From the NCBI GenBank assembly GCA_051362555.1, contig CM120644.1, forward strand, positions 17,754,534 to 17,818,533: DNA of 64,000 nt, in the 5' to 3' direction. The notes under the pieces were generated by a model that was not told the origin of the DNA, ran no database searches, and worked only from the letters and a program-made list of their open reading frames with translations. Position numbers and translations under genes: made by a program. How positions within the stretch are numbered: position 1 is the first letter of the stretch; every line of letters begins with the position of its first letter. The DNA comes from Lingula anatina (taxonomy: Eukaryota > Animalia > Brachiopoda). This document shows, one piece after another, positions 1 to 62,406 of the stretch.

Positions 1-1392
1 AACGCATTGAATAACTTAAATATGACAGCTAATTTTGGACCTCGCCTGCAGCCTGTTAATGAAGGGTACAACCCACAAGTATGTCTTACTATTCGTATTC
101 ATAAAGCAAGTATTTATGCCAAACCATTGCCCCTTAATTCGACAAAATGCAGCCATATGGTTTCAAATGGTATAACTTCGTCCCTTTACACCCTATCCTG
201 AAATATTTTCGCAGATACCGTGTAGCTATTAAAAAACACGACTACTGGTACGCGTTTAATCGATAACTGATTTAATACTCGTCAGATTACCATCCGCCCC
301 CTTCCTTATGAATAGGTATTACTTTATTAATACAATGCAACCGACGTGTAGCCGCATGTTAGAAGACAATGTGTGACTACGCACAACAGTATGAGGCCGC
401 TACCCCTTCCCAGCAAGGAGTCAACACAGCAGCGCGTAACCCGGGGTTAATTAGGGGTTATTAGCTGTCCACTTATGATCGGTATTGTTCGTCTTAATGC
501 AGCACACTTCCTACTCACTATTGGTTCGCCCGCCTCTTCTTTAAATGTTCTCTCAAACCTTTCCTCAGTCAGCCGAGAATGGAAACACGTTTATCTGCCG
601 ATAAACTTCGTCGTTGATGTATTTTTTGGCATCCTTATACAGTGGGCCATAAGGCTCTATCTATGATTTTTTTCGTCCGGCATTTTACCAGATTAAGCTG
701 ACGCTTGAAAACTAAATTAAATGAATAATTTTCTTACGTGCACGTATCCAGCTAATTTTACGACAATAACTTCCACGGCACCTCCGCCATTTGCAATTGT
801 AGACGAACCACGTGTTTCCAACTGATAGGCCAATACAACTATGCCAGACCCATTGCACGATAAAAAACCGTTTATATTTAATGAATTAAAAAAACATTTG
901 GGAATCACGATTTTCTATTGATAAACTTTCGATGGTATCCCTGTATTAAATCATCCACTGCTACCCCCTCTATTGTAGTGTAGCATGACTCGTATCACAA
1001 GATGGTCTTAGAAGTAAGACAGGCCTACACTCTGATAGTTTTAGTCTATTATTAACCCTAATGTCGTTTCTTGTCATTCATTCTAGAACTCTCTGAGCCA
1101 TCGCAAAGTTATTTGCCAGGACATTAAAAGGCTACTTCTTAACGGATTTTTTTTTTTTCACTGAGTCCAAAAATGTTCGAGGACGTCTCTGTCGTTATCG
1201 CCGTTTCTCGAACGTCATTTAAACGGCGTTGAACGGCAGTCCCAGACAAAGGATCGGGAGTTTCTAAATAAAAGAACTTATAAATGCTGCCACTAGCCAG
1301 TTATTGTTCCTAAGTAAAGAGAGGCGATAATGATCTGTTCTTTCTTCTAGCTTAGTCTGTCGACTAAAATGAACAAGGTTAGGCCTACAATG

Positions 1393-2470
1393 CAACCACC
1401 AATTATTACGACCATTAATGAGGTTCTTTGCTACACTCCCTTTCTTCATGATCGCGAAACCCGTGGGGTGCTGTGTTTTAAATATATATAAAAGGGGTTT
1501 CGCGAGGTGAAGCTATAATAATGAACTAAAATCCGATGAATAATAAACCTATCTAATAAACCATGGCCTATCTAATAAACCATGAAGCACAGGCCTCTTC
1601 TTTGACCGACATCAAATTTTTACATTCTTTGTTTTAATAAGAGGGCGAACGTAGTCTAATTTGTCTTTTCGTGGTGATTTTGCTCAAGTAACGGAGTCAA
1701 GTAAATCGGTGATTTACCGTTGGTAAGGGTAGCAATCATCCCTCCTGCGTCCTCACAGATTACTTTCTAATCCCCCGTAATTAACGCAGTCAGGAAGAAG
1801 CGCTGAAATAGGGGATTTTGTATCAGGGAAAAGTTTAGTATTAATCTTATGTTATCACGTATCTGTATTATGTAATCATGTAACTCATTTTCCCAAGGCA
1901 ACCACCAATTATGACGACCATTAATGAAGTTCTCTGCTACACACTTTCCTCTCCTCTCTCGTGAAACCCTGGAGGTGTTGGGTATATTTGGGGTAGTTTA
2001 CTATAGCATGCTACACTCTCCTCATGATCACTTGCTCGATCGTGAAATCTGGAGTGAAACCCTTGGTTTATCTAACAATGGTTTAAATAAATAAAAAGGG
2101 TGTCACGGAGGTGAAGCTGCTTAACTCATAAGAATAATGAACGAAAAAATACGATGAACATTTAATACACCACGAGGAACGTATGTTTTGACCGTCATCG
2201 CCTTTTTTACATAAGATGTTTCATCAAGAGGGCAGATGTAGTCCAATTTGTCTTTTGTTGGTGATTCTGCTTCAGGTGGCTGAGTGTAGTTGATCGGTGA
2301 AGTACCGTTGGTAAGAGTAGCAATCATCACATCCGCGTCCGAACGGATTACTTTCCAACCCCCCCATAATTAACGCAGCCAGGAATAGGCGCTGAAATAG
2401 GGGGTATTATATCAGAAATTAATTTTTGTAATTATCTATCCGTAAAATAAGAATCGTTACATTATCACGT
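1393..2470. repeat. Diverged tandem duplication, two copies of ~500-590 bp
   Basis: caaccaccaattatkacgaccattaatga occurs at ~1393 and ~1898. The block tttgaccg...ccgttggtaagrgtagcaatcatc...gcgctgaaataggg occurs at ~1601-1830 and ~2187-2420. Confidence 0.8.
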
Positions 2471-4990
2471 ATTTTTCCAGATGGAAAATATATTATAATA
2501 TGCACATTGATCAAATTATAAAGAAAATCTCCAGATGTAAACAAAGGTCAGTCAAGTATCACTCATCCCAGGCTGCAGGGCAGATAAAGAGAATTGAATG
2601 AAGCGCGAGTGATCTGGCAACCCTACAATTTCGTCATAATGATTCGTGGGCAAACAATAGAAGCATGAAATTAACACCTTTTACAGTGTGAAGGACGACA
2701 CCTAATGAGGCTTTTGTTTTTTCCCTGGGTGGTTATTACAAAGTAAGAATGTTGACGTAAGTGTTATCTGCTTCCTGGTGAAGACTTTTGCGTGTTCAAA
2801 GGAACAATGGAAATGTCATTTCAAAACAAAGAGCCACATTTCCCTACTTAGGTGGCCAAAATATTGTCAATGAAACGCAAAAAAAAAAGACAAAATCACC
2901 AGCTGTTACTGACTGAGTCTAACTCAAATGCAAAAAGGTACGCACAGCGACAAAGCGCTATTGTAAACAATGACCCGACGATGAGATCAATAGATGTATA
3001 AATGACTTATTGTACTATCAAATTGTACCCCTGCCCCTACTTGTATATTATTGCACACATAAGGCCACCCTATACCAGAGTTTCAGATTGATTTTTTATT
3101 ACGCAGTCTCTTGCACTGAAGAAAAATACTCATATATAATTTGCGGTCCTAGTAGAGGGTCGGTCTTCTCTCAATTTTCTCAAATCAAAACATGACTAAC
3201 AAACATGAAAATTGACAAGCTGTATTAGGATGTAAAGTGTTGAGAACCCTTTAACAAGGTATATGGTAATATGCACGTTTAGACAAATTTTAATTTTAAT
3301 TTCATTTAAATTTGATTTTAATTTTAATTAAAATTGATATTACCGAAATTAGTAAATGTCGTTTGCGTCATGTATCAATATTTATGCGCATAATAGTACC
3401 TACGTTATAAACATTCAGCAAAGATCTTTGGAAGGCCGCTCTTTCGTCGTTTATATCAAATGAAAACTATCTGATACCCATCGTATCAATCATTATACCA
3501 TGATAAGCGATTAGCATACTAATTTATGTCCCCAGTCATGATAACTTTAACAATTACAACAAACCTGCTTACTCTGCTTTTCGTTGCAAAAACAATTAGC
3601 CAAAACTGTTTTTATATTAAAAGATATCAATAATAATGACAATTTCAAAATTTCAAAAGTACCTTTGGGGTACGAACTCCCGTCGGGCAGGTTACAACGT
3701 TTGCAACGACGTTAACCGTTATTCCACCAATTCTATTATACTTTCACCGATATCGAGATATCTGTATTGCCGGGCATGCCGAAGCTTTGCGGAAATTGCC
3801 GAAGGCTAGGAAATTCTTCAAAATATATTTTTATTACTTTTAATCAAATCCAGACTATCTCTCACTGCCCTGAGGTATGGTTAAAACCTTTCAGTTGTCA
3901 TCAGACTTTGTAATTTGGGAGAAAAAAGTGAAACAGGAACTTCTGGTGATGAATAATATATTATAGTGCTGCAAGGTCTTGTTTTCTATCCCTGATGTAC
4001 GAGTAGCTTTTTCTACAGTTTCTATAATTCTCTTAACGTATGAAAATATGCAGGTTTTCTGATACAATAAGACTTTGATAAAATCAAAACCAATAATACT
4101 TTTCAAGTCGCGAGTCGGGATAAATATCGGCAAGGTGGAGATATGTCCCGCCGGCGCTTCCGCAACAGCAAGACTGAAGGACACAAGTTACAAAGCAAAA
4201 CATGTTTAGTCAAGTTAAAGACTTAATTACCGGCCTAACAGCGGCGATAGTGACTCCCGCTGTGAGCGACTTGCGCTGTCTATCGTAATCCCCCTATCAT
4301 TAACACTGTCGGGGGCACACGCACGTTCGACGTGCGTGTGCTATTAAAGTGACCGGGGACTAAATAGCTACACGGTACATTATATTCTCTCTGTGCTTTA
4401 AAGCCAGGAGGAAAATAAGCACTGGTGAGTCTAATTTACTACCCGAATTGTGAAGAATCTGCACGCTGAAGCTTATCTTTAGCTGCACGGGACACTTATT
4501 CTTTTTTAGTATTTGGCTTTTATTTGTGTTGTACTTATATCTGGAATTTATTATTAATATGGGTCAGAGGGCATGTGCTCTCACTTCTTATACATATTTG
4601 ATCGCCACCTGCTGCCAAAGTGACCAATGGTGACACCCTGGTACCAAATATAGTAAAAACTTTGATGAAAACCATACTTAATTATCATATGATATTGGGA
4701 TGGCCAAACTCCTTGTGATATGAAATTATCTGTACCCTGATGAACCCTCAGGTGCAACAAAACTAAACGGTTGTCGGGTAAAATTTGGTAAATACTGTAA
4801 ATTATCATTATTTTCCCCTCATCTTAACATATGTGAACATGTTTCATGAACAGTTTTGTGTAAAGAGCCACTCCTTTGTATTAAAATGATGCTTTAAATT
4901 AATGTTTTCTCATGTAAACTCAACAAGTAAATTTTTCAAATAGCAATATATGTTTCCCTAGCGTTTACTGGTAAATACTATTATCTTTAG

Positions 4991-7990
4991 GGAACAGGGA
5001 ACTTCATGTTTTCTGAAGTTTTTGTGACCAGTGTGTGTTACGTCAATGGGAATTGCACAGACCGAGGCGATCCCATAATTGGGAAAGCAATAGAAGGTAT
5101 GTAATATATAAAAAGACTAACGTTTTTTTGACTTCATTTCAAGTGTGCGTTTTTCGGCATGTCTGTTTACTGGTTGATTTGAAGTATTATACATGTATGC
5201 TGTCACTCCATCTGTTTGTGTCAGGTATGCATGTTTGCATGTCCGGCTGTAAGTGCTAAAATATCATTTACGTCCCAAATGTGTGATCCTCACGTATACA
5301 TCATTATCATCGTAGACTGGTATGCAGCTGCTCCAGCAAAACTGATCGACCTTTTTACACTGTGCGACACTCTTTCCACCATTTATGGAATGGAGCTGAT
5401 TCTGTCCAACGTCTTCCGTGGAAGATTGGTGCCCACAGCCACACAGCAGGCTTGGATCAAACGCCCGCATTCAGCATCTTTGTTTGCTGGCTCTGTTGGG
5501 ATACAGGTGAAATCCATTCTAACGGACATTAAGTGGTTTAACACACCCTTGAAATCGCAATTACTCACTGAGTTTGGCAAGCGTAATTCGTTATCAATTA
5601 AGTTTAATCTTGATATGTACTACCCAGACAGATATGAAAAATACTTTCTTTTTGGTCGCATAGTGGGAACAATAGGGACGCATCATAACGAAGATTCAGT
5701 TCCTTCTATGAGATTCACTAGGTTATTACGTGCTAAGCATGAGGAATGTCTTGGTTTGATGTTTTGTCATGCTCCTTTTGTAGTCGATAATGGCTTGAAA
5801 CTTCTCACCTTAGATATGGGAAATAGCATTCGAATTAATGATACCGGAGACTTTGATAAGGCTGAAACTGGAAAGATATTTGTCAGTATATCTCCGAGCG
5901 AGAACGCAATAATCGGCTCTGATTGCGAAAGTTACATGAATTCTTCAGATGCAACAGAAGTCAGGTATGATGACTCGCAATGGTATCTCACTTTTGGTGG
6001 AGTAGTTTCTATTAATATATCGAAAATTTTCAAGAAAAATATTGCTCATGTACCACTCATCATGTTTCGGACTATAACCAAAAGAGGTAAATTAACATGT
6101 AAGGTCATCCTTGCTGAAAGCCAAACTGGTATCACGATTGGGCCAATGTATCAAAGTTCGTACAGAAGAAGCCCTCATGAAACGCTTTTGTTTACCACCT
6201 TTGTGAGTCAGTTTGGAGAACCGGCCAAAGGTCTGACAGTAGGTCTGCAGTTTGGGAATAAATCGATATGTCGTTTCCAGCTGTGTGGACCATGTAGCAT
6301 GCCCTTTAGTAAACCGCGTTCGGCACTTGAGATAGGTCCGCCCGTTACAACAGACACAACCGGTACAGCGACAATCATGATTAAGACGAATGATTTAAAA
6401 TCTAAAGGATATTATAGTCAAAGAACCATACTTCACGATGGCCAGTTATATCTGTTGTTCACTTGCGTTACTGACAATACAGGAATCTCGATTTTCGCAA
6501 CATCTTTTTTGGGAATAACAATTTATAAATACTATAAAATCCCTGATATGCCAACTTGGTATGACGACGTGAGACCGATATTCGAATATTATAGCAAGCT
6601 CTACCCAGTTATGAACCATTTTGTTTATTTGCTTGACTATGAAAATGTTCTACGAAACAAAGAGAAAATAAAAAGAACGTTAGATCTACCTATTCATGAT
6701 CCGCATTATATGCCAACGACTCGGGACTTGTCTCCAAGTAAGAGAGACATGATAAAGAAATGGTTGAGTAATCCTGTATTAGGAAACGTGGCAACTATTC
6801 CTGAGCTCAAGAAACTTTTACAACAAGCTTTGTTACTTGAATTCACCACGATTCCACCTTATCTAACGGCCTTAATGTCCATCAAAGAAGGAACAAATGT
6901 ATACATTGCAGAAACTATTCGATCGGTACTAGTAGAAGAAATGCTACATATAGTGCTGGTAGCTAACATTCTAAATGCCGTAGGTGGGACTCCCCTCATT
7001 GCCAGCCCCCGGGCTGTTCCTATATACCCTACCCGCCTACCAGGAGGAGTGAGACCAGATCTGGATATTAATCTTCAGGGTCTTTCTAGGGAATACGTTG
7101 AATCCGTTTTCATGGAAATAGAAAGACCCGAGCAGATTCTCACAACCAAATGCACTGAAAATATGTCATTTCAGTCGAACTTTATGTATCGTTATAAATA
7201 CCAAAACCATCCCAGTCATGAGCATGGATTAAGACAGACCTGTTTCAAAAGGAATTATACCAATACTATATCAGTTTTCTATAAAAGAATTAAAACACTT
7301 ATCACAAGCCTTGCTAAAGATAACGATATATTTATAGGGAACCTCACAAAGCAAATAAATAGTAGCTTTTGGTACGGCCAAGAAAATACAGCAAGACCTT
7401 TCTCCGTTGATAATCTAACCCAAGCTATAAATGCTATTGATACGATAACTGAACAGGGGGAGGGAAGTAACGCCTGCCTTCCCCTTACCTCAGATAAACA
7501 TCTGTCTCACTTTTTCAAATTTTCCCAAATTGTACAAGGTAAAGAAATCAGGGTAACGGGATTATGCGGCGGCGTTGATCAAGCTCCAAAGTACAGTAGA
7601 TCTTGTGATAGAAACATTAATCAGTATTGCCAAGAGGAAACAATGGAGTGCAATACATTATTTGACTACACTGGAGAATCAATTCCATTTAACCCGCATG
7701 GCGTTTGGCCAATCACCCATAACCCCACGTTTGAAAAGCTCATTCCATTCTCGAGAGGTTATAGATTAGCAAAGGCATTTATTAGAATGTTTACTGGTCT
7801 TTTATATTGTTTGCAAGAAGGCCTGAACGGTCGCCCAAGCAAGATCCCAGACTGCATTGGTTTGATGCACGCGCTGTATGTTCAAGGCAAGGTGCTTGCG
7901 CAGACTCCTTTAGATGACAAAGGAAATCCGAATATAGGGCCAAATATTGGTCCAATTTTTCAGTTTGTTAATTATCAAAATGTGCCATAA
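4991..7990 (+). CDS. VioB/RebD/StaD-like protein (iminophenyl-pyruvate dimer synthase / chromopyrrolic acid synthase family) with C-terminal ferritin-like domain; exons 4991-5096 and 5316-7990, 5' exon(s) unresolved
   Basis: Long uninterrupted frame in ORF 5216-7990. Family-like motifs: AKLIDL...STIYG; PTWYDDVRPIFEYYSKLYPVM; HYMPTTRDLSPSKRDMIKKWL; ferritin-like LQQALLLEFTTIPPYLTALMSIK...EEMLHIVLVANILNAVGG...YPTRLPGG; AIDTITEQGEG; SHFFKF. The upstream exon (tttag|GGA ACA GGG AAC...ATA GAA G|gtat) encodes GTGNFMFSEVFVTSVCYVNGNCTDRGDPIIG and joins in phase 1 at cgtag|AC TGG. Confidence 0.85.
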
Positions 7991-8370
7991 ATAACAAACA
8001 TAAAAAAACGTCATTAGACCCAATATAATTTTTCACTTTTCTATGGTAGATTATGTTTTCTTTTATAAGGGATTAATTAGTTTTTTTTCAGTGGCTTGAA
8101 TCCGTATTAGGATGACATGATCGCAAAAATGCCTGCCTAGATTACATTTGCCATGCGATGTCGTTACGGTGCTCGTAAACTGCTAGTATATACCTTTTTG
8201 TGCGGCGTCTATCGAAGACAGGCGGTGGCCGTGCCCCACGACCTCCGTATAGTCTACGATTTTTGTCAAGCTCAAACTTAGACAAAGTTTAAAAATCGTA
8301 AGCCCGAAAGCCGTACCACTGTCGTAAACGGCTTTGCGCAGTTCCCAGACGGCCATTGTTCGGTGGACTT

Positions 8371-8518
8371 GGGCTCCGTATCTCGAAAGGTTCGCTATGT
8401 TGCGCACGTGCGTTAGTGTCTCGATTCCATAACCGATTCTATTTCGAGATACGGGGCTATGGAATCGAGACGCACTTGCACGTGCGCAACATAGCGAACC
8501 TTTCGAGATACGGAGCCC
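8371..8518. mobile_element. Short palindromic MITE
   Basis: ~41-bp perfect inverted termini gggctccgtatctcgaaaggttcgctatgttgcgcacgtgc ... gcacgtgcgcaacatagcgaacctttcgagatacggagccc. It explains the mirror-image ORFs on both strands. Confidence 0.8.
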
Positions 8519-15077: not shown

Positions 15078-18000
15078 ATGACAACGGATAAATTCGCCGT
15101 GATATTTAGTTCGTTTTATTACCATAGTCTCTTCAATGGAGTTGAGTATTCATCAGGCCTGTATATTGGCTTATTGTCGGATTATTTCAAAGCAAAAGAA
15201 GAAAGTATTGCATGGATTTTAGCTTTACTCCTTTGCGCCTTTGGATTGTTTGGTGAGTAATGGCGCACTTAGCTGTGGAGGGGGCGTGAACAAATGTAGT
15301 TGCTTTTATCAGGAATCACTTTTAGTTGTAGCTTATGGAAGAGGGCGCTTGGTTGCACTGCCCGCATTACCTACCCTTGCTGTGGCAGGAATGGTAGTCT
15401 TCTAGGAACCGTAGTGCTTTCCCCATTACTTTGTACAGGTGACTTTTGTCTTATATACTAACCCCAATACTCCGACTAATCTTATCCTGTACTCATAATA
15501 TGGGACTCTGGACTGCCATTCCTAGTACAACCATTACTGTCACACCTGTGTTCAGGAACCCGCATACGGGACCATTCACACTGTGCTAACTGCTTAAGAC
15601 CCTTTCTATATTGAGGTTACATGAACGCCGCGTATTTTATACGTTACCAAACTCGCAAAGTGCACCCACCGGTAGATTGTATAGCTTAACTATACCACTT
15701 CAAGTGAGAAGGACCTAAATAAATAAAGACCACAGAGGTTGCAATGAAGAGTCTACTAGTACTTTTTGAAATAGGGACTATTAAAGCGTGCTTCGCGGAA
15801 TCTGCCTTGGAAGCGCCCCCCCCCCCCCCCCACCCACCTCCTAACGCAGTCAATACACCCTCCCAGTAAACCTGGCATCAATATAGTGTTATTGTGCCAA
15901 GTAAGTGATCATAAGGAAAATTGAGTGCTAGTACGTTGCATATTATTCTATTTGCCTTTTTTCGTACTTTTTAAAACTTTTTTTGTGAACTTTTTTTCCA
16001 CTTCAGGTATGCCCGCCGGAATTTTGGTTCCAGTACTGGGCTTCCGGCTTTCGGCTGTGATTGGCTCTGTCCTAGCGTTCTTGGGGCTGGTTCTCAGCAG
16101 TATGGCCCCAAGTCTGGATTTTCTGCGCGTCTCCTTCGGCATCCTCCAAGCCATGGGGCTCAGTTTCCTTGGAATCACCAGCTCCGTGAGCGTCCAGCAC
16201 TGCTTCGATGATAGCCCACTAAAGGGGTTGGCACTGGGAATTGCAACTTCTGGCAGTGGCGCTGGACTTTTCGTCCTTTCTCCGTTGGTACAGTCAATGG
16301 CGTCCATGTTTAACTGGAGGGTGGCAATGATTGCCACGGCCGCGTATTCTTCTATTGGAATACTGCTTGGACTTTTCTTAAGATTTGAGTACAAGAATGA
16401 CAAGGCTATATCGAACGAAAGCCAAAAGGGCAATCAGGGTCTTGGATCTCTGTCGGACTTGTTTCAGCCGAAAACCCAGCAAGGCTATTCAGGAGAAGCG
16501 GACAATTCAACAAGCACCTCATGGATGGCGATCGTGTGCAATTTACGATACCTTCGTGTCATATTATCGGTGTCATTTTTCCAATGGGGAAAAAACATGA
16601 CCTTGGCGTTCTTGCCATCTTTTGCCAAAGAAAAAGGGATGAGTTCAGACAACGCCTCCTGTTTGCTTGTAGTCATTGGCATATTCGTCGTCATAGGGCG
16701 CATAGGAGCAACGTGCCTGACGGATGTTCGGTTTTTCTCGGTAGCAACATGGCTTGTCATATATGGTCTTCTTGGTGGCGGTTCTGTTGCTCTTCTTGTC
16801 GTGAGCTCTAAGTTGGTCCATCTGCTCATACTCGTTGCACTGTTTGGGTTTTGCCAAGGTAAGGTTAAAGTTGAGTTTGTTCGTCTACTTCAATATATTT
16901 ACGCAGCCAGCAAGGGGTGTCAGTTCTTTGGGGTTTCTGAAAAATCTATCGGATCGAAAGTTTTCCCCGGGTCACCCCTCGATATCATTGATACGCCAGT
17001 GCTCGTACTTTGTAATGCAAAAGCTCAGAAATGGGTGGGGTTCAACACAGTTAGTGTCCAAGAAGGAGCAGGTGTGTGTTTATGTTGTTGTTATCTATGT
17101 ATTTAATTCATACCTGTATATCAAAACTCGTGTATGCAACAGCAATTTTCACAGTAAATGTTTTCAGGGTTAAAACAGTTCGGTTCAGGATATTGACATA
17201 TTTTGGGAATGTAGGAGCCTCAGATGTCATGTCTGAACTGTAGCATTATAAAGGGGAGCCCCTGATTTTGGAACCTGTTTTACAGTTATATGCGTTTAAA
17301 AATCAATGTAACGATATTGTAAGTTTGAACACTGGACCCCTTTCACAAAATAACTTATTCAGTAGCATGGTTACTTTTTAAGTTCAACCACTGTAGGCTA
17401 CTTATATTTGATCCAAGAAAAATCTTAGGGCAGCGAGCGGTCTAAAACCTTTTAGTCTCACGTTGATCAATTACTGAAATAGATCAGATCATCGTGAGAC
17501 TAACCTTCCGTACTACTGATAAAAGGGATAGTTTAATTCTCAGAGCTAGATATGCTTTTCTGCAAGTTGAAGATCTACAATCCTAATTTTTAGGGGCAAA
17601 GCTTACCATTCCTTGCTTGCTGTTGCGTGATGTAGTGGGCTTCGACCATCTACCGCATGCATTTGGCTTAATGTCGGTCTCCCAGGGACTTATTGCATTA
17701 GCGACACCACTGGGTGGTAAGTGAGTAAAACTTTTAAAAAGATGAAAGATGAGATATAAACTTTTTAAAGCATGACGAAAACATCTTTGTATGTGTTAAG
17801 TTATTATAGTTCTAAAGTTGTCATACATAAGGGTGTGGCATTATTTATGGACTGCGTTAGAATAAACCGCTAGGCCTACTGATCCGAATGGGGATTCATG
17901 CGGATTTTTAAAAACACTCGATATAAGAATAAGATGTACACAAATGCATCAAAAGAATGGCATTTTTCTCATTTCTCAACAACAAGCATCAAATATTGAA

Positions 18001-24900: not shown

Positions 24901-27900
24901 GCTCCATGATATTATATTTTGGAGAATAAAATTTTATTTTGGCAACATTAGATTTACCTTTTGCAAACGGCGACCAACAATCATTTTCGGTTTCGTAACG
25001 TGTCGCAGATACGCTCGCCGATATATATTGCAAAAATTAGCTAGGCTAAAAGTATCCTTTTTAGCGTTTTTTTTTATTTATCGATTTTTCTTTCATTTGT
25101 CAATTAATTTAGATGATTCGATTAACTCTTTTGTCCATTTATTAGGTATTCAGAAATCAGTCATCCGTATGAACAAATAGGACCGGTTTTCCCCAGCCGC
25201 CACGCATAGGCCCTACTCTCTTTCAAAATTTTCTTTCTTTCCTCAGGAAATGGACTTTTTACACGAACTTTTCTCTTCCCCATAGTGTACTAGCTAGACT
25301 TCTTCGCTGCTAAGCTGATGTGAGACTTATGACCTATTACGGCACACGTAATCGGCTTATAACTCATTAAATGTGCTCCGACCCCCTCATGGCAACGGCC
25401 CTTAGTAACAGAGGCGTGGCTTAGTTGTCAGCCTGACTGGGGCGCGTGCCGGTTGAAAAACTCATCAAAAGACTCATTTTGCGATGCAAATTCATAAAAA
25501 ATATTACATCCAACGTTAGATACTTTTTTTGATTAATATAAACACACAAAAAACTCAAAAACATGATTTTAAGCGTATTTAACCCTATCACCGGCCTTAA
25601 TTGCTGGTGTCACTGTTTTTGTTGGTGTTTTACACTGATCCTTGACAATATCTCGGGTTGGTGTTACTGTCTCCTCAGGTACTATATGCTGATCCTTGAT
25701 AGGTGAATGTAATGGCTCATCACATGGCTCCAAGTCAACAAAATTAGGGTTATAGTGATGTGCTTTTTCTGTTGATGATCTTAAGTGCTGACGATTACGT
25801 CTGTATACACGGTCATTTCCTTCCACTATGTATGATCTTGGATGTGTATGACGTTTAACAACAATGGCTGGTGCCCATGTTTTTGAACCTGGATGAGGCT
25901 GCATTCTCGCATGTTCTGCAGGGTTGAAAGCTTTCAGTTCTTTAGCACCTTTCCTTTGATCATAATAATATTTCTGCTTTAGTTTCTCCTGGCTAAAATG
26001 ACGTTTCACCTCTCGTTGGTTATATGCCTGTGGTTTTAACAGATTTCGAGCTGCAGGCAGTGTGTTTCTAGGTCTGCGTCCCATTAACAACTGCGAAGGG
26101 GACAAGTTTATGCCTTCCAAAGGTGTAGTTCTGTAGTAGAGTAGAGCAAGATACTTGTCATCACATTTTTTCCACATTTTCTTCACAATTTGAATAGCTC
26201 TCTCAGCTTCCCCATTTGAACCTGGTTACTGAGGACTGGAGGTCATATGTTCAATATCATACACTTTGCAAAATTGTTTGAATTCACATGAACTAAACTG
26301 TGGTCCATTGTCTGATCTGATTTTAAGAGGTATGCCATGACAACTAAACACATATTTCATAGCATTGATTGTAGCAGTTGTAGTTGCGGCATTCAGTTCT
26401 ACAACATCAATGTACTTTGAATAGTAATCAATGAGAAGTAGGTACTTCTTTGCTCCAAAGTCAAATATGTCACAACCAACTTCAGTATAGGGTAGATCTG
26501 GAGGGACGGTCGGTTTCAACGGTTCTGCGGGTAACCTGTTTTGATACTCAGAACATTTTATGCAGTCTCTCACCATGTTTTCAATTTCCATATTCATTCC
26601 AGGCCAAAACATGACTTCCCTTGCACGCTGTTTGCATTTCACAACTCCAAGATGTGACTCGTGTATCAAGCTAAGCATGTACTTTTGTAATGACGGTGGA
26701 ATAACTATTCTGAGGCCTTTGTAGATTACACCATCAAACACAGACAATTGGTCTCTGGAGTCCCAGAAATTTCTAATTTCATAAGGTGTCTCTCTACGCG
26801 TATCTGGCCATCCTTGAACAATTGTGTTGTATAGAGGCTGTAGCTCTCTTTGCGTTCTTGTTCTAATATCAGAGTATCTCTCGCTGCTCACAGAGATCAT
26901 ATCAATTAAACATAAATCATCTAGTCCTGTCACGTCAGAACTGGTGTCTGGTAAGTATGCTCTCGACAATGTATCTGCTACCACCATATCTTTGCCTTTC
27001 CTGTATACAACATTGAGATTGTACCACTGTAGACGTAGCAACATCTTCTGCAATCTCATTGGAGCTGACAGTAATGGCTTCTTATAAATGCTCTCTAATG
27101 GCTTGTGGTCTGTGTACACTGTTGTTTCCTTACCGAAGATGTAGCAGTGGAATTTTATAGCTCCATGGACAATGGCGAGCATTTCCTTCTCTATTTGAGC
27201 ATAACGCATTTCAACATCAGTAAGAGAACGTGACGTGTATGCTATAGGTCGGCCATCTTGTATTAGCACTGCCCCTAGTCCACTTCTTGATGCATCACAC
27301 TGAATCTCTACGGGCTTGTTCACATCATAATAAGCTAATACAGGCGGTGTGCTACACAAGTGTTTGAGTTCCTCAAAACTTGCTCGTTGCTCATGTTCCC
27401 ACTTGAATGACACATCATTCTTCAATAATGCTCTCAGTGGGGCATCCACCTGACTCAGGTTTGGTATGAACTTGGCTAGATACTGTACAAGACCAAGTAT
27501 TCTTCGTACTCCATCTTTATCTGTGGGTGGTGTCATCTCAGTTATTGCGCGCACTTTTTCTGGATCTGGGCTCAGGCCCTCTGCTGTGAAGATATGTCCC
27601 ACATACTGAACTCTGGGCTGACGCACCTGACACTTATCAAAATTGAGCTTTAGGTTGTATTCAGTAGCTCTCTGAATAACCTTCTTGAAAATCGAATCAT
27701 GATGCTCACGATCTGTGCCTGCTATCAATATGTCATCCATTATAGCTGTGGCACCTTCTATGCCTTCAAGCATTTCATCCATGATTCTCTGAAAGATTTC
27801 TGGCGCTGATTTAATACCAAAGGGTAGGCGAAGCCATCTGTACCTGCCAATTGGAGTTTTGAAAGTAGTCAAAAAGGATGACTGCTCATCAAGCTGTATC

Positions 27901-30900
27901 TGCAAAAATCCCTGTGTGGCGTCTAACACAGAAAACACTGTGGCTTTTGGAATACTAGCTACAACTTCTTCAATAGTTTTCAGTGGATGATGCTCCCTTT
28001 TGATTGCATTGTTCAAATCACATGGGTCTATACAGATTCTCACTTTATCATTTCTTAATGAAACAACCATTGAACTGACCCATTCAGTTGGCTCATGGAC
28101 TCGGGTAATGAAGCCATCTGATTCCATTTCCTGTAATTTCTCTACGATGCGTGGCTTCAGTGATGCTGGCTGTCGTCTGGCTGGATGTATAACTCCCTTT
28201 GCTGTTGGGTCTATCTTTATGGTATGCTTACCTGGTAGCGTACCTGTGTTCTTGGCAAGTTCAGTGAAATCATCTACACTGTTTACCTTGTTTACTCTGA
28301 CTCTATGGAGGTGCCCAAGTTTCTCTGAAACTTCACCGTTAATGACATTTTCCTGGTCTATGTCTACTATTTCAAAGTCAACTGGCAACTGAGTAGTATT
28401 GTATGCCACTGAAAGCTGTGCTTTTCCGATTGGGCGGATCTTGTGATTAGAGTAGGAGCGAAGAAATTTAGTTGTTTGGTTCAAGTTCTTGTGAAGACTA
28501 AGTTTTTCATAATCAGCTTTCACTAGAATGTTACATTTTGCTCCAGTATCTATACGAAATTTAAGTGGCTTGTCTTGGACATCTAGTGTCACTATCCATT
28601 TATCTTCAGCTGCACTGACAGAGTCAACATTTTCATCATCAACTTCAGTTGTATGAATGTACAGTGGATCATTGTTGCCATCTTCACTCACTGAATCATC
28701 ATAGTAAACATCATTATCACTTTCCTGTAAAGTGTGTACTGCCTTGGCTTTTCGTTTTCTGCATACTGAATACCAATGGTCTGGTTTCTTGCAATATCTG
28801 CATTTGGTTCCTTTTGCCGGGCAAGTATTGTTTCTATGGGCTGTTGCAATATCTAAACCACACTGACCACATTTCTTGTTCTTTTGCTTCCAAGGTACGT
28901 GTTCCTGTCTCTTAGAGGCTTGTGAGGGATTTCTACTAGCATGGCTTTCCTTACTCTTATGTGACTTGTGATTAATGGCGGAAACTTCAACTTCTGGTCT
29001 TAGAATCTTCATTTGTTGCTGGGATGACTCATACTGTCTGCCTATTTCTAATGCTTGAGCTAGAGTAAGTCTTTCCCCTTTTTCTAACAGTTTCTCTTGA
29101 ACTCGAGGATAGTACACCCCACGTATTATACAGTCAATTAAAATGTCTTCAGCGTCTTGGTACTCACAATCCATAAGAATCAATCTGATGTCTTTTACAA
29201 AATTGTCAAATGTCTCACCTTCCTCCTGCTTCCTTTTCTGGAGATTAAATCTTTGTGCACGTTTGTTTTTTCTGGGTCTTACATAATTTTCAAGCTTGCC
29301 GAATATTGCTTCTGGTTTATCCTCTTCATCTTCTTCCCAAGTGCATGTTTTGTAAATTTCTCTCCCTTGTTTTCCAATCCACATGCCTAACCATCCTGCC
29401 CTTATCTTATCATCTGTTTGTGATAGTGGACCCTTGAAAACGAGCTCAGCATGCTGTCGGAATCGAGTAAATTCCAAGTACAAATTTTTAGACTCCCAAT
29501 CGAAACTGGGTTGCTCGAATGCATATGCCATTTTAATTAGTGTCTCGCACAATTAAAAATGTTATGTGGCATGTGTAAGGACTCACTAATAGCTTGAAAA
29601 GTTCAACTTCTGACACCATGTAACATAAACGTGCTAACTCTGTAAGCCGCCATGCTGGAACACACGTGTATTATTTTAAGTCGCTTACAACATTGTAAAA
29701 TAAGAGGTGGTCGCTTAAGACAAATAAAATGTTACAGTCTGTGATATCTGTGATAGTCGACTCGCCTTCAAAAATTGCTCTAGTACATGTTATTGAAGTG
29801 TAAGCAAAACATTTTTGTATCTTTTAAGGAACAAGTGGTATGGGCCGTGGAAGAGGGAGCCGATTATATTGTGGGGGAAACATACCGCCATTTTGGAGAA
29901 GCCATGTTGGCTCTGGAGGCAATTAAAGAGTTTGGCCAAGGTAAAGTCGATTTTTTTCCCAGCGGGTAGGCCTAATTACTCTGAACAATAATGGCAAAAG
30001 AAAAAAAAAACTCCGAGGACCGAGGAACCTTTGGAGTTTTTTGACAAAAATTACAATTTAATTTTTCCACCTCTGGAACGACGAATAGGGTGTTCATCTA
30101 CTTACACGTTCGTGTATAATATTTGATTGGCCGCAAATTTTAAGAAAGTACAGTTTAAGAAAGTATACCCTACAATATACGTATATGCTTTATCAACTCA
30201 AGCTCATAAAAAGAAAACCTCTTGGAGCCTGTTTGTAAAAAAAAAAAAAAATAATAATAATAAAAATAAAAACTTGTATCATCGGCGGGTTTGGCCATTC
30301 AAATAAGTGTCCCTATTTTTACATAAAAAAGGAACATTCAATGCCCATACATTTTCCACTTTTATTTTTATTATTTCAGGAGTCCCAGCTGTTATAACGA
30401 TGGTTGCTTACAAAGACAAAAGTGTAGAGGGCGTGCCAATCCCGGAAGCCATGAGGAGACTGCAGGACGCTGGAGCAGCCGTAGTGGGGTTAAACTGTGG
30501 CCGTGGCCCAGCCACCACCATTCCTATGATGAGAAAAATTAAAAAGGCTTGTAAAGTAGGTGTTTTGATTTATATTCCATCATCTCAAAAACTTTTTAAT
30601 GTTTATATGCTCTTCTCTCCTTTAAATATTAGGGTCCAGAATTAGAACATTTGCTGTTGGCTCGTTGCCTAATTTCCTGACGTTAACGATGTTATGAAGT
30701 TTCAGATGGTCAAAAGTTAGTTTAATCATATAGACACAATGCATCTCTTCTTCCCTAACTGTAGTATTTCAGAGATCTCAGCTCATGTTTAACGCATACA
30801 TTCGTCCATTTTTGTATTTTCTGCATACAAATTAAAATTTCAGGGTGCAGTTGGTTGTTTGCCGGTTTGTTACAGAACCACCCCAGATAAACCGGTGATG

Positions 30901-38514: not shown

Positions 38515-41500
38515 TCACTGGCACAACAATTGCTTGGTTAATATCTCGTACGTCATGGCTCTTCTGAAGTACGGCATGTGTTCCTGGATAGAAGGACATC
38601 AGTCTTAGATAGGACTTCATTTATATTTCTGCTAACAAAGCATATACGATGAGACATTTGCTAACAACGTATTCTACAGATTCACATCTTTCTGCCACGA
38701 AAGTTTTGGAAAGGACAACATATATTTCTGCTAACAAACATCAGCCCTGGCAATGTTGTCTTCTTTTATTACTGCTGATTTATTGCTAAAGCTCTATACA
38801 AGCCCCCCCCCCCCCCCCCATATCACTCACCCTTACCCACCACAACCAATACCACCACCACCTCATCTCTTAAAATACTGGGTATATATTTAGTTCATAC
38901 CTGAGTAAAAGTGATCTTGGCTCCCCTGGTGGCGTACTCTGCATATTTACATGCAAACACACCACAGTCACTGCCATTCATCTGCTGAGGTATATCCTAC
39001 AAAATAGATATATAAATAAATAAATAAATTCATTTTTACACCAACAGAACACACCCACCTTTACAATCTCATCCCTCCAGCCTGTCATGTCAAAGTACAC
39101 CCACCTTTACAATCTCATCCCTCCGGCCTGTCATGTCAAAGTACCCCCACGTTTACAATTTCATCCCTCCAGCCTGTCATGTGAAAGTACACCCACCTTT
39201 ACAATCTCATCCCTCCAGCCTGTCATGTCAAAGTTCACCCACCTTTACAATCTCATCCCTCCAGCCTGTCATGTCAAAGTACACCCACCTTTACAATCTC
39301 ATCCCTCCAGCCTGTCATGTCAAAGTGCACCCACCTTTACAATCTCATCCCTCCGGCCTGTCATGTCAAAGTACACCCACCTTTACAATCTCATCCCTCC
39401 AGCCTGTCATGTCAAAGTGCACCCACCTTTACAATCTCATCCCTCCGGCCTGTCATGTCAAAGTGCACCCACCTTTACAATCTCATCCCTCCAGCCTGTC
39501 ATGTCAAAGTGCACCCACCTTTACAATCTCATCCCTCCAGCCTGTCATGTCAAAGTACACCCACCTTTACAATCTCATCCCTCCAGCCTGTCATGTCAAA
39601 GTGCACCCACCTTTACAATCTCATCCCTCCAGCCTGTCATGTCAAAGTACACCCACCTTTACAATCTCATCCCTCCAGCCTGTCATGTCAAAGTGCACCC
39701 ACCTTTACAATCTCATCCCTCCAGCCTGTCATGTCAAAGGGTCGTTTCTTCTTGTCCAAACTCTCGTCCAATAAATACTGCCTGTAAACATACAGATTGC
39801 AAAGTCTAAACTTATGAGGAGCATTATGAATACAAGATCAAAACTGTACAAGTACACATCTGAGAGTTGTTAACTTTGAAGAATTAGACAAGAGAGTAGT
39901 CAACTTTAAAGAATTAAATAACAGACCAAATTTGATGGGCCAAGACAAGAGTATTAGCCTGCTTACTAACTTTTATCCAAATAGGTAACTTTATGAAAAA
40001 TAGGAGACAAAGACATAATTTAGGGAACATAATTTCTACATATTTTACAAAGAAACCAAAAAACTGAAAAAGTCCTCCAGCTTGATTTCATGAAGCCACA
40101 GTATTGTTTTATCTTCTTTCTTTACACTGGTATAGGAGAGGAGGGATGGGGGGGGTTAGACTTTCATCTGGGAACTCCCATACTAAAACAGGTCAACCCT
40201 CTCACCTTAATGCCTTCAGACACCCGGTGTTCTTGCCTCCCATGGAGTCAAAATACTTGATTGCTTTTTCTTTGAAGTCAACAAGCTGAAAAAAAGTTAA
40301 ATTTTGATAAAGAAAAATGATGGCTATTTAGTTAGCATAGATTTTGATATATAATATCCATGTATCCATAAGGTCAGATAAAATATAGTACTGATGGATG
40401 ACATCATCACAAAAAATTACATTGATCAATAGTGTTATTGACAATTTTTTGACCAATAAGAGAAAAAGAACCAATGTTAATCAGGAAACATTGTTGGATG
40501 ACAGCGATTTTGAAACTTTCATGTTATTATAGAGGATGCTAACATATAGGTATTAAATTATGTAATAACACAAAGATTTTTTTCTTTTTGGTCAAAGTGT
40601 TGTTTAGACCTAAGAAAAGTAACAACAATTAAAATGTCACGAAAAATTCCAAATTTCCTAAAAATGTTAGACTTGAATTGACTTTTACTCACCGCTAAGC
40701 ACCAATGCATTCCTAGATGAACAGGAACCACTATGTAATCAACTGCGAACACGTCCACCTTTCTCGTCCACCGTTTCAAAGCAGCATGTCCTCCACTCAT
40801 CAACTTGGGGTAGAAGAACGTGTTGAAAGCATGTACTTTACTGCAGTCTTTCTGTTTTCCACGTTCAATGAGAAGATTCATGTAGAAGTTGATCACCTGG
40901 AAATTTTGTTTCATTAAATTTTTCATCATTTTGTTTTCATAAATTTAAATTAAAATTTGAGCAAAATCATGAAAATATTTACTCAAACTGGCCTCCCTTA
41001 TTCCTATATCAAAGAGCACATTTCTAATAAAGCTATCATTCTACGTTTATCTCTAGTTCTAATTCCATCATTGTCCATACATTTAATCTGACAATAAATT
41101 CCAAATCATTCAAACAACTCAAAACAATCAAGGTGCTCATATCTCCTCTCTAAGGTTCTAATACCATCTTTAGTTAATTCACACACTTAATCATTAGGCT
41201 TGTTAAGGACCACAAACTGGGCAAAGGCTGCACTTTGTAAGAATGTCCGACTTGGCATGCATGTTCCTTGGGACAAAAGAAATTTTTATCCCCAGAGACA
41301 ATCTCTATTGATGCATTAATTAGTATAAATATGACTACAAGTACCTCGTCACTCAGCCAGTTCAGCCCTAACAAAGTGCTCATATCTCGTTTTTAAGGTT
41401 TTAAAACCATTTTTTGGTTAATTCACATATTTAATATGACTACGCATACCTCATCATTCGGCCAGTTCAGCCCTAACAAAGTGCTCATATCTCTTTTTTA

Positions 41501-57369: not shown

Positions 57370-57728
57370 TGGAGCTTTTGTTGTTTTCTCCCGGCCTCGA
57401 GAGAGCAAATATGGCGGGCAGGAAGCAGTACTACGGACCCATTTTGTGTTATGTTTGTAAGAATCTGATTGGCAATCAGTACAATGAAATAATGTTTAAC
57501 TAGTTCATAATTTCCTGTTATTTCCATCATTGCCAATAAAAATTGTACTTTAACCAAATTGTCGAAAAAATATTTGTTAATATTTTATCAACTGGGCACT
57601 GCAAGACTATTCTTGACCTATTTCCAAAGTTACTAAATTTAGAACCTGGAAAATTTGTCAGGGAAAACTTCACACCAAGAAACAATCAAGTGATGTAGGG
57701 TCGTCGCTATTTTCGTTATTTCAGAATT
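57370..57728. promoter_or_regulatory. Short divergent (bidirectional) promoter region between the SENP and DED-helicase start codons
   Basis: Divergent ATGs at 57369 (-) and 57729 (+); YY1-like AAATATGGCGG at 57407-57417. Confidence 0.6.
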
Positions 57729-60700
57729 ATGGCTGAATCAAAAATCAGATTAAAACCATATGCGAAATTGCGTATTCGTGTATGCAAAGAACTGCAGACA
57801 GCAGACTTTGATTTTATAAAATTGGCACTGCAGGATGAAATACCTGCCGGCGAATTGGAGGAGATTTCAAACCCTCAGAAGCTTTGGAATGCCATGAAAA
57901 AAAGGAACCTTATTGAACCTAATGACGTTGGTTTTCTCAAGGAAATTATGGAACACATCGATCGACTTGATTTGGTAAAAGTCATTGAAGAATATGAAGA
58001 GGATCGTGGTAATTTATTGAATTCTTGGTCTACTTTCACTTTCAAAAATTTGACCAAATGCATTAATGTAGTAACACTAGTTGGTAATTTTATATAAACA
58101 TGTACTATAAATTACATATTAGCAAATATGCATATAAAAAAAAAACTAAATCAGAGTGCTTAGACATGATTTACTCGACAGATGTGGCTTTTTTAATTAA
58201 TTAATTTTTATTTTTTATTCAATTATTTATTTATTATTATTATTATTATTTTGTACAGTTTGATTCTCCCCTAGTACCGTTATATGTATATTTTCTATTC
58301 CTTCAGTTAACATATGTATTGAACTGTCCTGACACAACTCACAGACATAAAAAGAGATAAAAATCAGGTGTTGATAATTTAAGCATATAATTTTCAATTA
58401 ATAGCGCGGAACCCTGAATTGCAAGCACCTGACAAGGACGCGAGATATCCAGAGGTGAGTGATATTAGTACTGGTTTTAATAGCATTTAACAAGCCATCT
58501 TAATCATTAGTAAAGTAGAAAAAATATCAAGACTTAAGCCATTTCTCTCATCAATAAAGCAGGAAAATGTATATTGTTAATTTTCTGACATGCTACAGTA
58601 TTAGTGCATACATGTACCAGTAATATTACTAGGTCCTATATATATATATATATACCTTTGCAGAGCCAGCCCTTAACTGTAGATCTGTGGTTTTTTATTG
58701 TCTGGGTTTGACATACACATTGTACCTGTTGTCTTTACTTGCCCAACAAAAGTGATTTCTACAGTCAGGCAACTAACATTTATAGTAATTTTTGTCATCA
58801 AACAAGAGGGGAAATAGTGGTGCCTTTAATTTTTTTCAATGCGGAGAATTGTGAATTTAACAGAAACCTTTTTTTTTGAGTTGTTAATTCTTAAAATGAG
58901 AACATTCTTATTGAGTGATTGCAACAAATATGAAATGTGGCCTAGCCTATAGTTCTATTCTGTAATACATTTGTACCACAGCAGATGCTTAATAGAAACA
59001 GTTTTTAATAGTTTTTAATTAATGATTTCAAAACTATGTTTTCGAAAGACTGATAATTTATGCTGTTGAAAAGGTCCACTCATTATAACTTCAGTTTCTG
59101 CTGTTTTAAAGTTTGTGTCACAGTATGGAAAAATAACAGAATAATTAATATTATTAAATACTTTTGCAGCAAGTGGAAAGCCCTGGAGAAGAGACTGCTA
59201 AAAAAGAGGCTCTCCCACTACATACAGCATCGTCTGATTCTCAGCTTCAGAAAAGTGCCAAGCCATCAAACAGATATCATTTGCTCCATTCAGAGTCATC
59301 TCCAGGCTTATCAAATGCCAATCAACCAGTAATAGGTAGCACAGGTGGACAATCTCCTCTTTTAGATGTCCAAGGAACAACTGGCAGTCAGCCAGGAACT
59401 CGTAACATTGGTGCAAGCCCCCTTAGCCCTTTAAATGGGAACACAAGCCTTACTTTCTCTAACCATGTTGAGAGTAAAGAGACATTTCCAAAACAGCGAG
59501 TTGGCTTCGATGGAAATGCCCCCAGTTCTGGCCCTCAGTGTGAGCAGACAGCTGTTAAAGTTGTTAACTCGTCTGATGGCGTTGGCAACTTTGAAAGACC
59601 CCAACTTCCAGCTTCTCTTGATAGTCTGAGTTCACAAACTGCACGCAAGCCAGTGTATGGTGATAGCGAAGACTTAGAGGAAGATTCTTCATGTGGTGCT
59701 TCTACAGGTAAATATGAGACACACGGTTATATAAACTGACTTTGTAAATATTTCTGTAAGTGATTGAATATGTACTGAATATATGGGATTATACTGAGCA
59801 TTAGGTTTAATGCATGTCTTCATTTACAAATTGCTATACTAGTATGTGCATGCTTATTGCACTCCGACATTCAATGACAAGTTTGATTTAAGTTTACAGC
59901 ACTAATCCCAAATTTAAATGCGCATTCAGTCAATCGGATAGCGTGCCTACTAGTACATGTACTTTGGGACGTGAAAGAGCATGTGACATACTCCACACTG
60001 AATAGACTGATTTGTAAGGTATTTGTGACTGATGCATGAACTTCAATCAAGAGCTGCTGAATTCCAGATGCAAATTAAAACAAGCTGCACGTATGAAAAA
60101 TTTGAATATCTGAAAGGCTTGACTCTGAACTTTTAATCGGTATATTAATTGTTTATCCTATTATAAGTCTTATATTGGTGCTGCATGCACAACACAGCAA
60201 TGTTTTTTTCTTTTCTTGAAATAAATACTTATTAAATAGGTACCTGACTCTCCTGATTTATCATACCCCGTTCACACTACAATCTGAAATATCCGAATTT
60301 TTGCAATGCGAATTACGGTTGAAAAATCCGATTCGATTTTCTGGCCACACACAGCAAAGGGAAACCGAATCGTGCACTGAAAATTCAGGTGGAGGTTCCG
60401 GTTTGAAGAATTGCGCATGCGCAGAATCCATGAAAACAAAAATATAGCGCCAATCATTGCTCTTCTCGCACTCAGTTTTTTTTCTCGTGTAATTTGTTTT
60501 TGGAACATCAAATTTAACCCAAAAGTCGTCAAAAGGGAGATTTAAGTAAGATCTGGAAGAATTTGACGGATACAAGAAGGAGAATAGCTGGGTTTCGATG
60601 GAGAGTGTGGGTCCACTGACCTGGCATGTTGCTTTTCTTTCCCGCGAGATTTGCTAGTGCATGCGCAGTGCGATCTAAACAGGTGGCCCTTCCGGTAAAG

Positions 60701-62406
60701 TAACCGAATCGCTGGAGAGAATCCAGCTCGCTAGTAGGATTTTTGGAAACCGGTTTACAAAAATCCTCATGCGTTCAGACTACCGCAATAATTCGAATCT
60801 TGACCTAATTCGCTATTTAACCGGTTAAATGACTGCAGTGTGAACGGGGTATGATATGCCCTGGCTTAGCTCAATTAAACCATTCTAGGACTTTCTTTGT
60901 TTTTCATTTCATCTTTTAAAAAATAATTCTAGTGTTTTATGAATGTTTCATAGGAATTATTATATTGATAAAAACGCATATTTTAAATAAAATATACTTC
61001 TGGTTTAGAATTTGTAATTGCAATTATTTAAGGGTATTGCTTTTGGTTAGATGCATGTGTATCTTTCAAATATGAGATGAGTTTGCACCTCCATTCACGT
61101 GCTTAAAATTGTATATGCTGTTCCTAATTATTATATTTGTTTTTATAAATTTTGTGATGAAAATCATTTCTATTAAATAAAATATATATTACTGTCATAG
61201 CAATTATACCTTGTAATTAGGATCTAGTATCATAATTCTGTCATTGATCTTAATTTTTATCTTTTAGCTCAAGCAGTGTTCATTGGTAGTGAACCAGTGG
61301 TAGAGGCAGCAGGTGAAATGACAGAAAGAAATGAAGGCATAATCAGACAGGCGTCTGTCCCTCTGGAGCATCTTGTCCAAGATGGTGTCCCAACAAAGAA
61401 GAAATTTTCTTTGCGTAAATATCAGCGCGAGTTGGCCAACGAGGCCATAAAAGGTACAAATACCATCATCTGTGCCCCCACTGGAAGTGGCAAGACCCTG
61501 ACTGCAGCGTATATCTCTCGCATCAGAAGAAGCCAGGTGCTGAAAAATGGCCAGAAATTCAAAGCAGTTTTCATCGTTTGTATTCGAAATCTAATCCAGC
61601 AGCAAAAAGATGCCTTTCAAACCATTTTCCCGCCCCAGGATAAAATAGTTGGTGCCATAAGTCAGACTTCGGACAATTTGAAGACATGTTTGTTAAACTA
61701 TGACATTATGATGCTTACAGCACAGATTCTTGTCAATGATATCAAAGAAGGAGATGTGAAAATCACCGATTTCGACCTAATGATAATGGACGAGTGTCAT
61801 CACACAGATTTGGATCACCCATACAACATGATAATGAGGTTGTACATGACGGAGAAAAAGAATCGAGAGCAAAGAGGGGAGTCTACAGAGTGCCTTCCTC
61901 AGATTATTGGGCTTTCAGCCTCGCTGGGCACTGGAAAGGGGAACGATCCTCTGCAGCATTATTATCGGGTCTGCGCCAATTTAGACTGCTTCACCATCAG
62001 TCATGTGAGGAACCCAGTGAATGAAAGAGAGCTGCTTTGCATTAACCCCAAACCCAAAACAGATCAGATCAAACTGGTACAGCCTCGTTCGTCTGATGAT
62101 CCCTTCATCTTAATGGTAAAACAAATGATGGAAGCAAGTGAAAAGGAAGTCAGCTTTCCCATGGAGTTGTCCAAGAAGTTTGATAAGGGCAGTCAGGGGT
62201 ACGAAAATTGGGTCATTGAAAATAAAAACGAAGCCGAGTGCCAAGCGCTTCATACACCTGAAATGCGTAATACAGTCATAACTTGTCGATTTCTGAGAGA
62301 TCTGAATTCTGCTCTTATGCTGTACGATGACCTGAGAGGAAAAGATGCCCTGGAATTCCTAAGAAAAAAGATACTGGAAAATGATGACCGCAGTATTCAC
62401 AGTAAG
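57729..62406 (+). CDS. RIG-I-like receptor-type DExD/H helicase with N-terminal death effector domain (5' part); exons 57729-58008, 58405-58454, 59170-59707, 61268-62406; continues downstream
   Basis: Exon 1 is DED-like (..LWNAMKKRNLIEPNDVGFLKEIMEHIDRLDLVKVIEEY, RxDL motif). The helicase exon has LRKYQRELA, ICAPTGSGKT, TAQILVN, DECHH..HPYNMIM, LPQIIGLSASLG and a Hel2i-like GSQGYENW. Junction phases 1, 0 and 1 join all four exons in one frame. Confidence 0.87.
60264..60851. mobile_element. MITE with 15-bp TIRs (Harbinger-like) in a helicase intron
   Basis: taccccgttcacact ... agtgtgaacggggta. Confidence 0.65.

Follow-up and report, generated by a model that had tools for sequence, protein, structure and literature searches.

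The analysed window was a stretch of 64,000 nucleotides of a Lingula anatina chromosome, in which an open frame at positions 5183-7990 of the forward strand runs for 935 codons from stop to stop. This frame belongs to a gene of three exons (Table 1), which together give 952 codons with a single, terminal stop. An earlier note made from the sequence alone had described some 890 uninterrupted codons in a gene starting at 4991. The length agrees with the 891 codons of the last exon, an open stretch expected by chance at about 1e-26 per start at the composition of the window, and 4991 is indeed the start of an exon, but a further exon upstream had been overlooked. The gene is confirmed as real and is larger than that note had it.

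Table 1. Positions of the gene, its protein regions, other elements of the window and a related bacterial gene cluster.
Feature	Position	Strand	Description
Exon	1..78	+	26 codons ending in NPQ; GTATGT donor from 79; truncated by the window edge
Intron	79..4990	+	4,912 nt, GT...AG, phase 0, full of high-copy host repeats
Exon	4991..5096	+	106 nt, GTGNFMF...KAIE; AG acceptor, GTATGT donor
Intron	5097..5315	+	219 nt, GT...AG, phase 1
Last exon	5316..7990	+	891 codons + TAA
Ig-like domain of the beta-rich N-terminal region	~residues 270-405		Within exon 5316-7990
Helical linker	residues 415-487		YPVM and YMPxTRDLS; within exon 5316-7990
Ferritin-like domain	~residues 490-885		E509, E542, H545, E603, E716, H732
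Inverted repeat	8371-8518		64 nt, 91% complementary, very high copy, in RNA reads; MITE-like
MFS_1 transporter exon	15925-16860	+	~8 kb downstream of the gene, same strand
LTR-retrotransposon-like gag-pol	25569-29552	-	1,108-codon frame then 218-codon frame; looks young; domain labels by eye
Tandem array	39024-39809		~63-nt unit, open in three frames
RIG-I/DHX58-like helicase	57699-62421	+	Death effector domain exon upstream (PF01335, E 9.9e-17); exon 61273-62418 has 97% identity to annotated Lingula anatina DHX58
Bacterial P450 + VioB-like + aminotransferase-methyltransferase cluster	L012:8145-14679; L013:8400-14636; L016:8491-14562

The first exon has 58% identity with residues 58-81 of a Lingula paralog and scored 33.3 bits against it, the best of 30 shuffles reaching 23.2 bits. 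It was missed by a profile of the family N-terminus and picked up in a short-word search with the paralog. It lies within a single-copy contig covering 1-245, and the summed contig depth was in the thousands across most of 1-4480. A segment at 4680-4750 (HMILGWP...MNPQ) was considered as a decayed first exon and rejected; it contains a stop and a 27-nt replacement between individuals, and the real exon is that at 1-78. The second exon matched the N-terminal family profile (E 1.6e-07), and its splice to the last exon is in frame, giving AIE-DWY where the paralog has SVE-DWF. The splice sites are inferred from sequence and homology, and no spliced reads across the introns of the gene were found in the RNA runs examined. 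The protein of the three exons and residues 58-1045 of XP_013383910.1 are 44% identical over 997 columns. About 57 N-terminal residues, including a signal peptide and the SYLxxPRxxFxG start, are expected 5' of the window.

Animal repeats and animal genes were said to surround the gene, and this was borne out; the helicase exon in Table 1 points to Lingula anatina as the likely host. In the DNA run X1, which may be the source of the assembly, depth over the gene was flat and single-copy at about 50-85, and contigs bridged the gene to host repeats at both ends. No single contig spanned the whole stretch. Together with the introns, these contigs place the gene in an animal chromosome. Two further studies contributed runs X3 and X5; in each, a single contig extends across 4593-8372 and shows about 3.5% differences within 5270-8372. 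Upstream of 4593, the contigs of these two other individuals continue with unlike sequence; the structure of the long intron thus varies among individuals. In the short intron about 110 nt are replaced in the two other individuals, and the exons still align. All indels among the 12 of 15 listed lie outside the exons. Among the 40 of 156 entries listed, the second allele has 16 coding differences, 8 synonymous and 8 non-synonymous, which gives a dN/dS of about 0.29 (p 0.014). This value suggests purifying selection. The gene has a GC3 of 0.37; two host exons nearby have 0.45 and 0.52.

Transcription, which the earlier note had proposed to look for, was essentially undetected in five RNA runs from unspecified tissues, of which 6-30% each was read. 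Depth over 4481-8320 was zero in X9, X12 and X15, no reads fell on the gene in X17, and X14 contained about one read pair near the 3' end of the gene. In the sampled material the gene is thus silent, rarely transcribed or restricted to certain tissues.

The ferritin-like domain proposed at the C-terminus was recovered by an HMM search as PF12902, with 185.3 bits (gathering cut-off 22.3), E 1.9e-54 and coverage of profile positions 1-220 of 221. The motifs named with it, YMPTTRDLS, EFTTIPPYLTA, EEMLH, EQGEG and SHFFKF, are all present. A predicted model of the window protein had a pLDDT of 74 and a pTM of 0.59. Its C-terminal domain superimposed on 3HL1 (the CC_0557 ferritin-like protein, PF12902) with Z 26.7, rmsd 2.4 and 30% identity over 255 residues. 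The two share this fold, 3HL1 being a stand-alone domain of 317 residues whose entry title gives no function. The next structural matches were Dps, bacterioferritin and Mn-catalase folds at Z 11-13, values below 13 being unspecific for helical bundles. Residues 270-405 matched Ig-like domains (Z ~10). Limited searches with Foldseek and VIA gave no clear structural match for residues 1-270, and in the Atlas the front half retrieved only PF12902 clusters and bacterial clusters under 0.9.

The model places a four-helix bundle with a Glu/His ligand set of the di-iron type in this domain. The window protein has all six predicted ligands, E509, E542, H545, E603, E716 and H732, which also occur in 98-99% of the 121 rows of the family and in 7/7 VioB/StaD rows. 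Conservation extends to the non-ferritin half and the linker, where R136, E268, M466, P467 and R470 are invariant. Of the 103 positions conserved in the family, the window protein keeps 96; the second Asp of DLD is among the seven lost. As heme ligands, the invariant Met residues are no more than candidates; the heme of bacterioferritin has bis-Met ligation.

The first reading had called the gene VioB/RebD/StaD-like. In the literature, VioB, StaD and RebD (iminophenyl-pyruvate dimer synthase, chromopyrrolic acid synthase) appear as heme oxidases dimerising indolepyruvate imine (PMC10847564, PMC12710047, PMC12525477), the heme cofactor being covered in PMC10847564 and PMC12710047. For comparison, three VioB and six StaD-type proteins were drawn from genomes, the StaD-type clusters having an upstream oxidase. 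Aligned to these nine proteins with hhalign, the family profile gave a probability of 100 and E 3e-47 over 852 columns at 15% identity, an alignment that is uncertain in the front half. With the VioB model TIGR04492 of NCBIfam, the window protein scored 17.6 bits against a cut-off of 1250; true VioB scored 1833-1908 bits and StaD-type controls 830 bits. Only 76 of the 261 residues invariant in VioB/StaD occur in the window protein, and the family lacks 6/8 invariant His and 3/3 invariant Cys columns. No VioB structure was found in PDB searches, and a predicted VioB model (pLDDT 53.8) was too poor for structural comparison.

The features shared with VioB, StaD and RebD comprise the domain order, the full-length homology, the YMPxTRDLS linker and, in the family, the PRxxFxG start. 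Those shared with VioB/StaD further include the ligand set E...ExxH...E...E...H and the invariant residues W415, Y426, M433, M466, Y516 and M543. In contrast, the window protein lacks WGHYN, CKxETY, WQMCDP, the LACG insert and GEHHLF, and its gene is spliced and has no adjacent Trp oxidase; the animal members are likely secreted and richer in Cys. The full-length homology in the original assignment therefore stood, but membership proper did not. Judged by sequence, the window protein is a distant full-length relative outside VioB/StaD proper. It likely works as a related metallo-oxidase and not as a member of that group, since the ligands and the full-length match are shared, yet so few of the invariants are.

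A word search yielded 113 relatives, and a 21-sequence profile run against 1.84 billion representatives gave 6,587 matches (E<=0.001). The listing covered the best 150 of these matches, and 30 clusters were looked up. Animal members came from the corals Oculina, Orbicella, Montipora and Porites, the anemone Actinostola, the jellyfish Sanderia, the sponges Corticium and Oscarella, and the bilaterians Lingula, Saccoglossus and Glandiceps (hemichordates), several Branchiostoma, and Ciona and Styela (tunicates). No vertebrate, arthropod, mollusc, annelid or echinoderm names appeared among the best 150 of the 6,587 matches and the 30 clusters. The closest relatives are the Lingula proteins of LOC106154185 and LOC106173762 (XP_013383910.1, XP_013410453.1), which are sister in the tree (100/100), are annotated as uncharacterised and are paralogs at a different locus. 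Bacterial relatives are uncharacterised fused (~900 aa) or split (~600 + 350 aa) VioB-like proteins with about 30% identity over the full length and the same conserved columns; unlike the likely secreted animal members, they are cytoplasmic and lie in varied neighbourhoods with ebo genes, P450 + aminotransferase, NRPS or multicopper oxidase.

An adaptation to the secretory environment had been suspected from the extra cysteines, and the relatives support this. In a crude test, a hydrophobic N-terminal stretch was found in 18 of 19 named animal proteins, both Lingula paralogs among the positives, and in none of 25 bacterial proteins. Cys content is 0.9-3.9% in animal members against 0.59% in their bacterial kin. 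All four scanned proteins of the tunicate clade carry a TSP1 domain, and one amphioxus protein has LDLa repeats. Taken at the sequence level, the animal subfamily is likely secreted. Some animal members are automatically labelled in databases with the VioB domain name. No study of the animal family was found in the open-access literature searched.

A maximum-likelihood tree was built from 44 rows, taken from 122 non-redundant full-length sequences, over 866 columns (LG+G4, without a mixture model). In this tree of bacterial and metazoan homologues, the animal copies formed a single clade (100/98) with Lingula nested in Bilateria. Within it, Bilateria (100/99), Cnidaria (100/98) and homoscleromorph sponges (100/100) were recovered beside a fourth, large group (100/100), which is probably also sponge. 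Forcing Lingula outside the other animals was rejected by the AU test (p-AU 0.0034). The tree does not fix the order among the four animal groups, composition is uneven, and the branching inside Bilateria departs from the species tree, with tunicates beside Lingula (94/82). VioB/StaD as outgroup formed a long branch, with low support for the root position. No usable intron positions were obtained from coral and sponge gene fragments. The single animal clade and the rejection of a separate Lingula origin argue for old vertical inheritance, and the gene likely goes back beyond the divergence of sponges and bilaterians. Consequently, of the two histories first proposed, an ancient, patchily kept gene stands and a transfer specific to Lingula does not. 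Because of its wide bacterial diversity, the family is likely of bacterial origin. The sister of the animal clade consists of four proteins (95/95), one of which, P0244, has a C-terminal fusion to an OTU-like protease (PF02338, E 8.5e-16); its source organism would bear on the donor lineage.

The partner oxidase that had been suggested was not found in the DNA searched. The 64-kb window gave no match to a VioA/StaO/RebO-type tryptophan oxidase. Eighty bacterial loci were kept; the analysis took the 35 among them whose matches were nearly full-length, and none has a VioA/StaO-type oxidase beside the gene within the fetched flank. Two of these loci gave matches to the FAD motif only, and the controls L098 and L104 matched at E<1e-160. 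A PF01593 search of five whole genomes matched 14/14 controls and was uninformative. The gene is split in two in at least seven of the 35 loci. Most neighbourhoods varied, and seven of them, in about three independent settings, include ebo genes, which have been tied to thallusin made from cyclitol and aspartate with one oxidative step unexplained (10.64898/2026.05.21.724671). The proposed product thallusin is not derived from tryptophan. In three actinomycete loci (L012, L013 and L016), the gene lies between a P450 and an HisC-like aminotransferase whose fusion partner resembles 2-ketoarginine methyltransferase. The P450s have 34-38% identity to the P450 at the StaP position of L098, and the layout may mirror StaO-StaD-StaP, the keto acid then coming from a transaminase. 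This cluster may make a coupled keto-acid product that has yet to be described. Multicopper-oxidase or tyrosinase neighbours occur in three loci (L001, L019 and L040), and fungal PF12902 genes are described near lodA-type amino-acid oxidases (PMC4417212). These clues lean towards the oxidation of amino-acid-derived keto or imino acids, without singling out a substrate.

In the reading we prefer, with a probability of about 0.45, the gene encodes an ancient, likely secreted, predicted di-iron oxidase that likely couples aromatic keto or imino acids. The protein would very probably be exported, going by the signal-peptide-like N-termini of its relatives. Two metals would probably be bound by the six Glu/His ligands and would activate O2 or H2O2. 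With roughly even chances, the beta-rich front half would form a substrate or heme site together with the YMPxTRDLS linker, as both are kept in VioB. The substrate could be an aryl-pyruvate or its imine, at somewhat less than even odds, and the dimers could serve in defence or tissue tanning; tryptophan as the specific substrate is improbable. Animals have secreted amino-acid oxidases, and either such an enzyme or an aminotransferase might supply the keto acid or imine.

Two alternatives concern the gene itself. A recent transfer from a bacterium to Lingula, or a contaminating bacterial contig, is largely refuted and extremely improbable. The single 2.7-kb exon, the low GC3 and bacterial matches scoring almost as high as the non-Lingula animal ones would suit it, but the gene has two spliceosomal introns, single-copy depth of about 50 with contigs running into host repeats, and a Lingula paralog as its closest relative; it was found in three studies and is nested in Bilateria. 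It is very improbable that the window copy is a silent or decaying duplicate and the annotated paralog the working gene. For such decay speak the near-zero RNA, the seven lost conserved positions, the repeat-filled 4.9-kb intron and two same-species runs (X18 and X19) that share 0.00 of the gene words, with 0.08 in X8. However, the 952 open codons, canonical splice sites and complete ligand set speak against it, as do the dN/dS of the second allele and the absence of any indel of the large exon from those listed for the two other individuals, and 44% identity to the paralog indicates an old duplication.

Other alternatives concern function. An extracellular protein handling iron or peroxide (a ferroxidase, catalase or peroxidase-like protein) with no small-molecule product is fairly unlikely. 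The Dps, bacterioferritin and Mn-catalase matches agree with it, although these are unspecific; RebD has catalase activity, and a broad animal spread with no partner genes fits a stand-alone role. Such a role explains neither the conservation of the non-ferritin half of 490 residues nor why the two halves stay together in bacteria even where the gene is split. Unlikely as well is a secreted oxidase that cross-links or tans matrix (phenols, catechols, protein-bound Tyr/Trp) in tunic, shell, cuticle or sponge skeleton. The TSP1 and LDLa domains and the multicopper-oxidase or tyrosinase neighbours are in its favour, and near-absence from five RNA runs would suit a narrow tissue or stage, but most animal members have no matrix-binding domain and the bacterial members no signal peptides. 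The strong form of the first reading, a genuine VioB/StaD-type enzyme forming animal bis-indole pigments by dimerisation of indolepyruvate imine, would explain the full-length homology and common ligand set; the failure to approach the VioB cut-off, the missing diagnostic motifs, the want of an oxidase partner in the window and the 35 bacterial loci, and the long branch to VioB/StaD make it improbable.

A bolder version of the preferred reading, which we consider quite unlikely, is that animals have had their own secreted enzyme resembling chromopyrrolic acid synthase since before sponges, and that it makes diarylpyrrole or bis-indole cores in sponges and tunicates. Lamellarin-type and related cores, whose source is unsettled, would then arise through oxidative dimerisation of arylpyruvates. 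Lamellarins are known from ascidians, sponges and one mollusc, and their biomimetic synthesis is an oxidative dimerisation of arylpyruvic acids (PMC4278223). Any link of the family to a metabolite is a hypothesis.

The family is thus an unstudied, likely secreted metalloenzyme family of marine invertebrates in at least six phyla or subphyla, kept since early animals, and its sole characterised relatives make bacterial bis-indole alkaloids. If matrix tanning or peroxide handling proved true, it would still be a new class of extracellular oxidases. Since this family ranges from sponges to sea squirts, is likely secreted and likely acts as an iron oxidase on derivatives of aromatic amino acids, animals may themselves carry out some of the chemistry commonly ascribed to their symbionts. 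With a candidate encoded by the host, Ciona, amphioxus or coral could be used to test which of the two partners is responsible.
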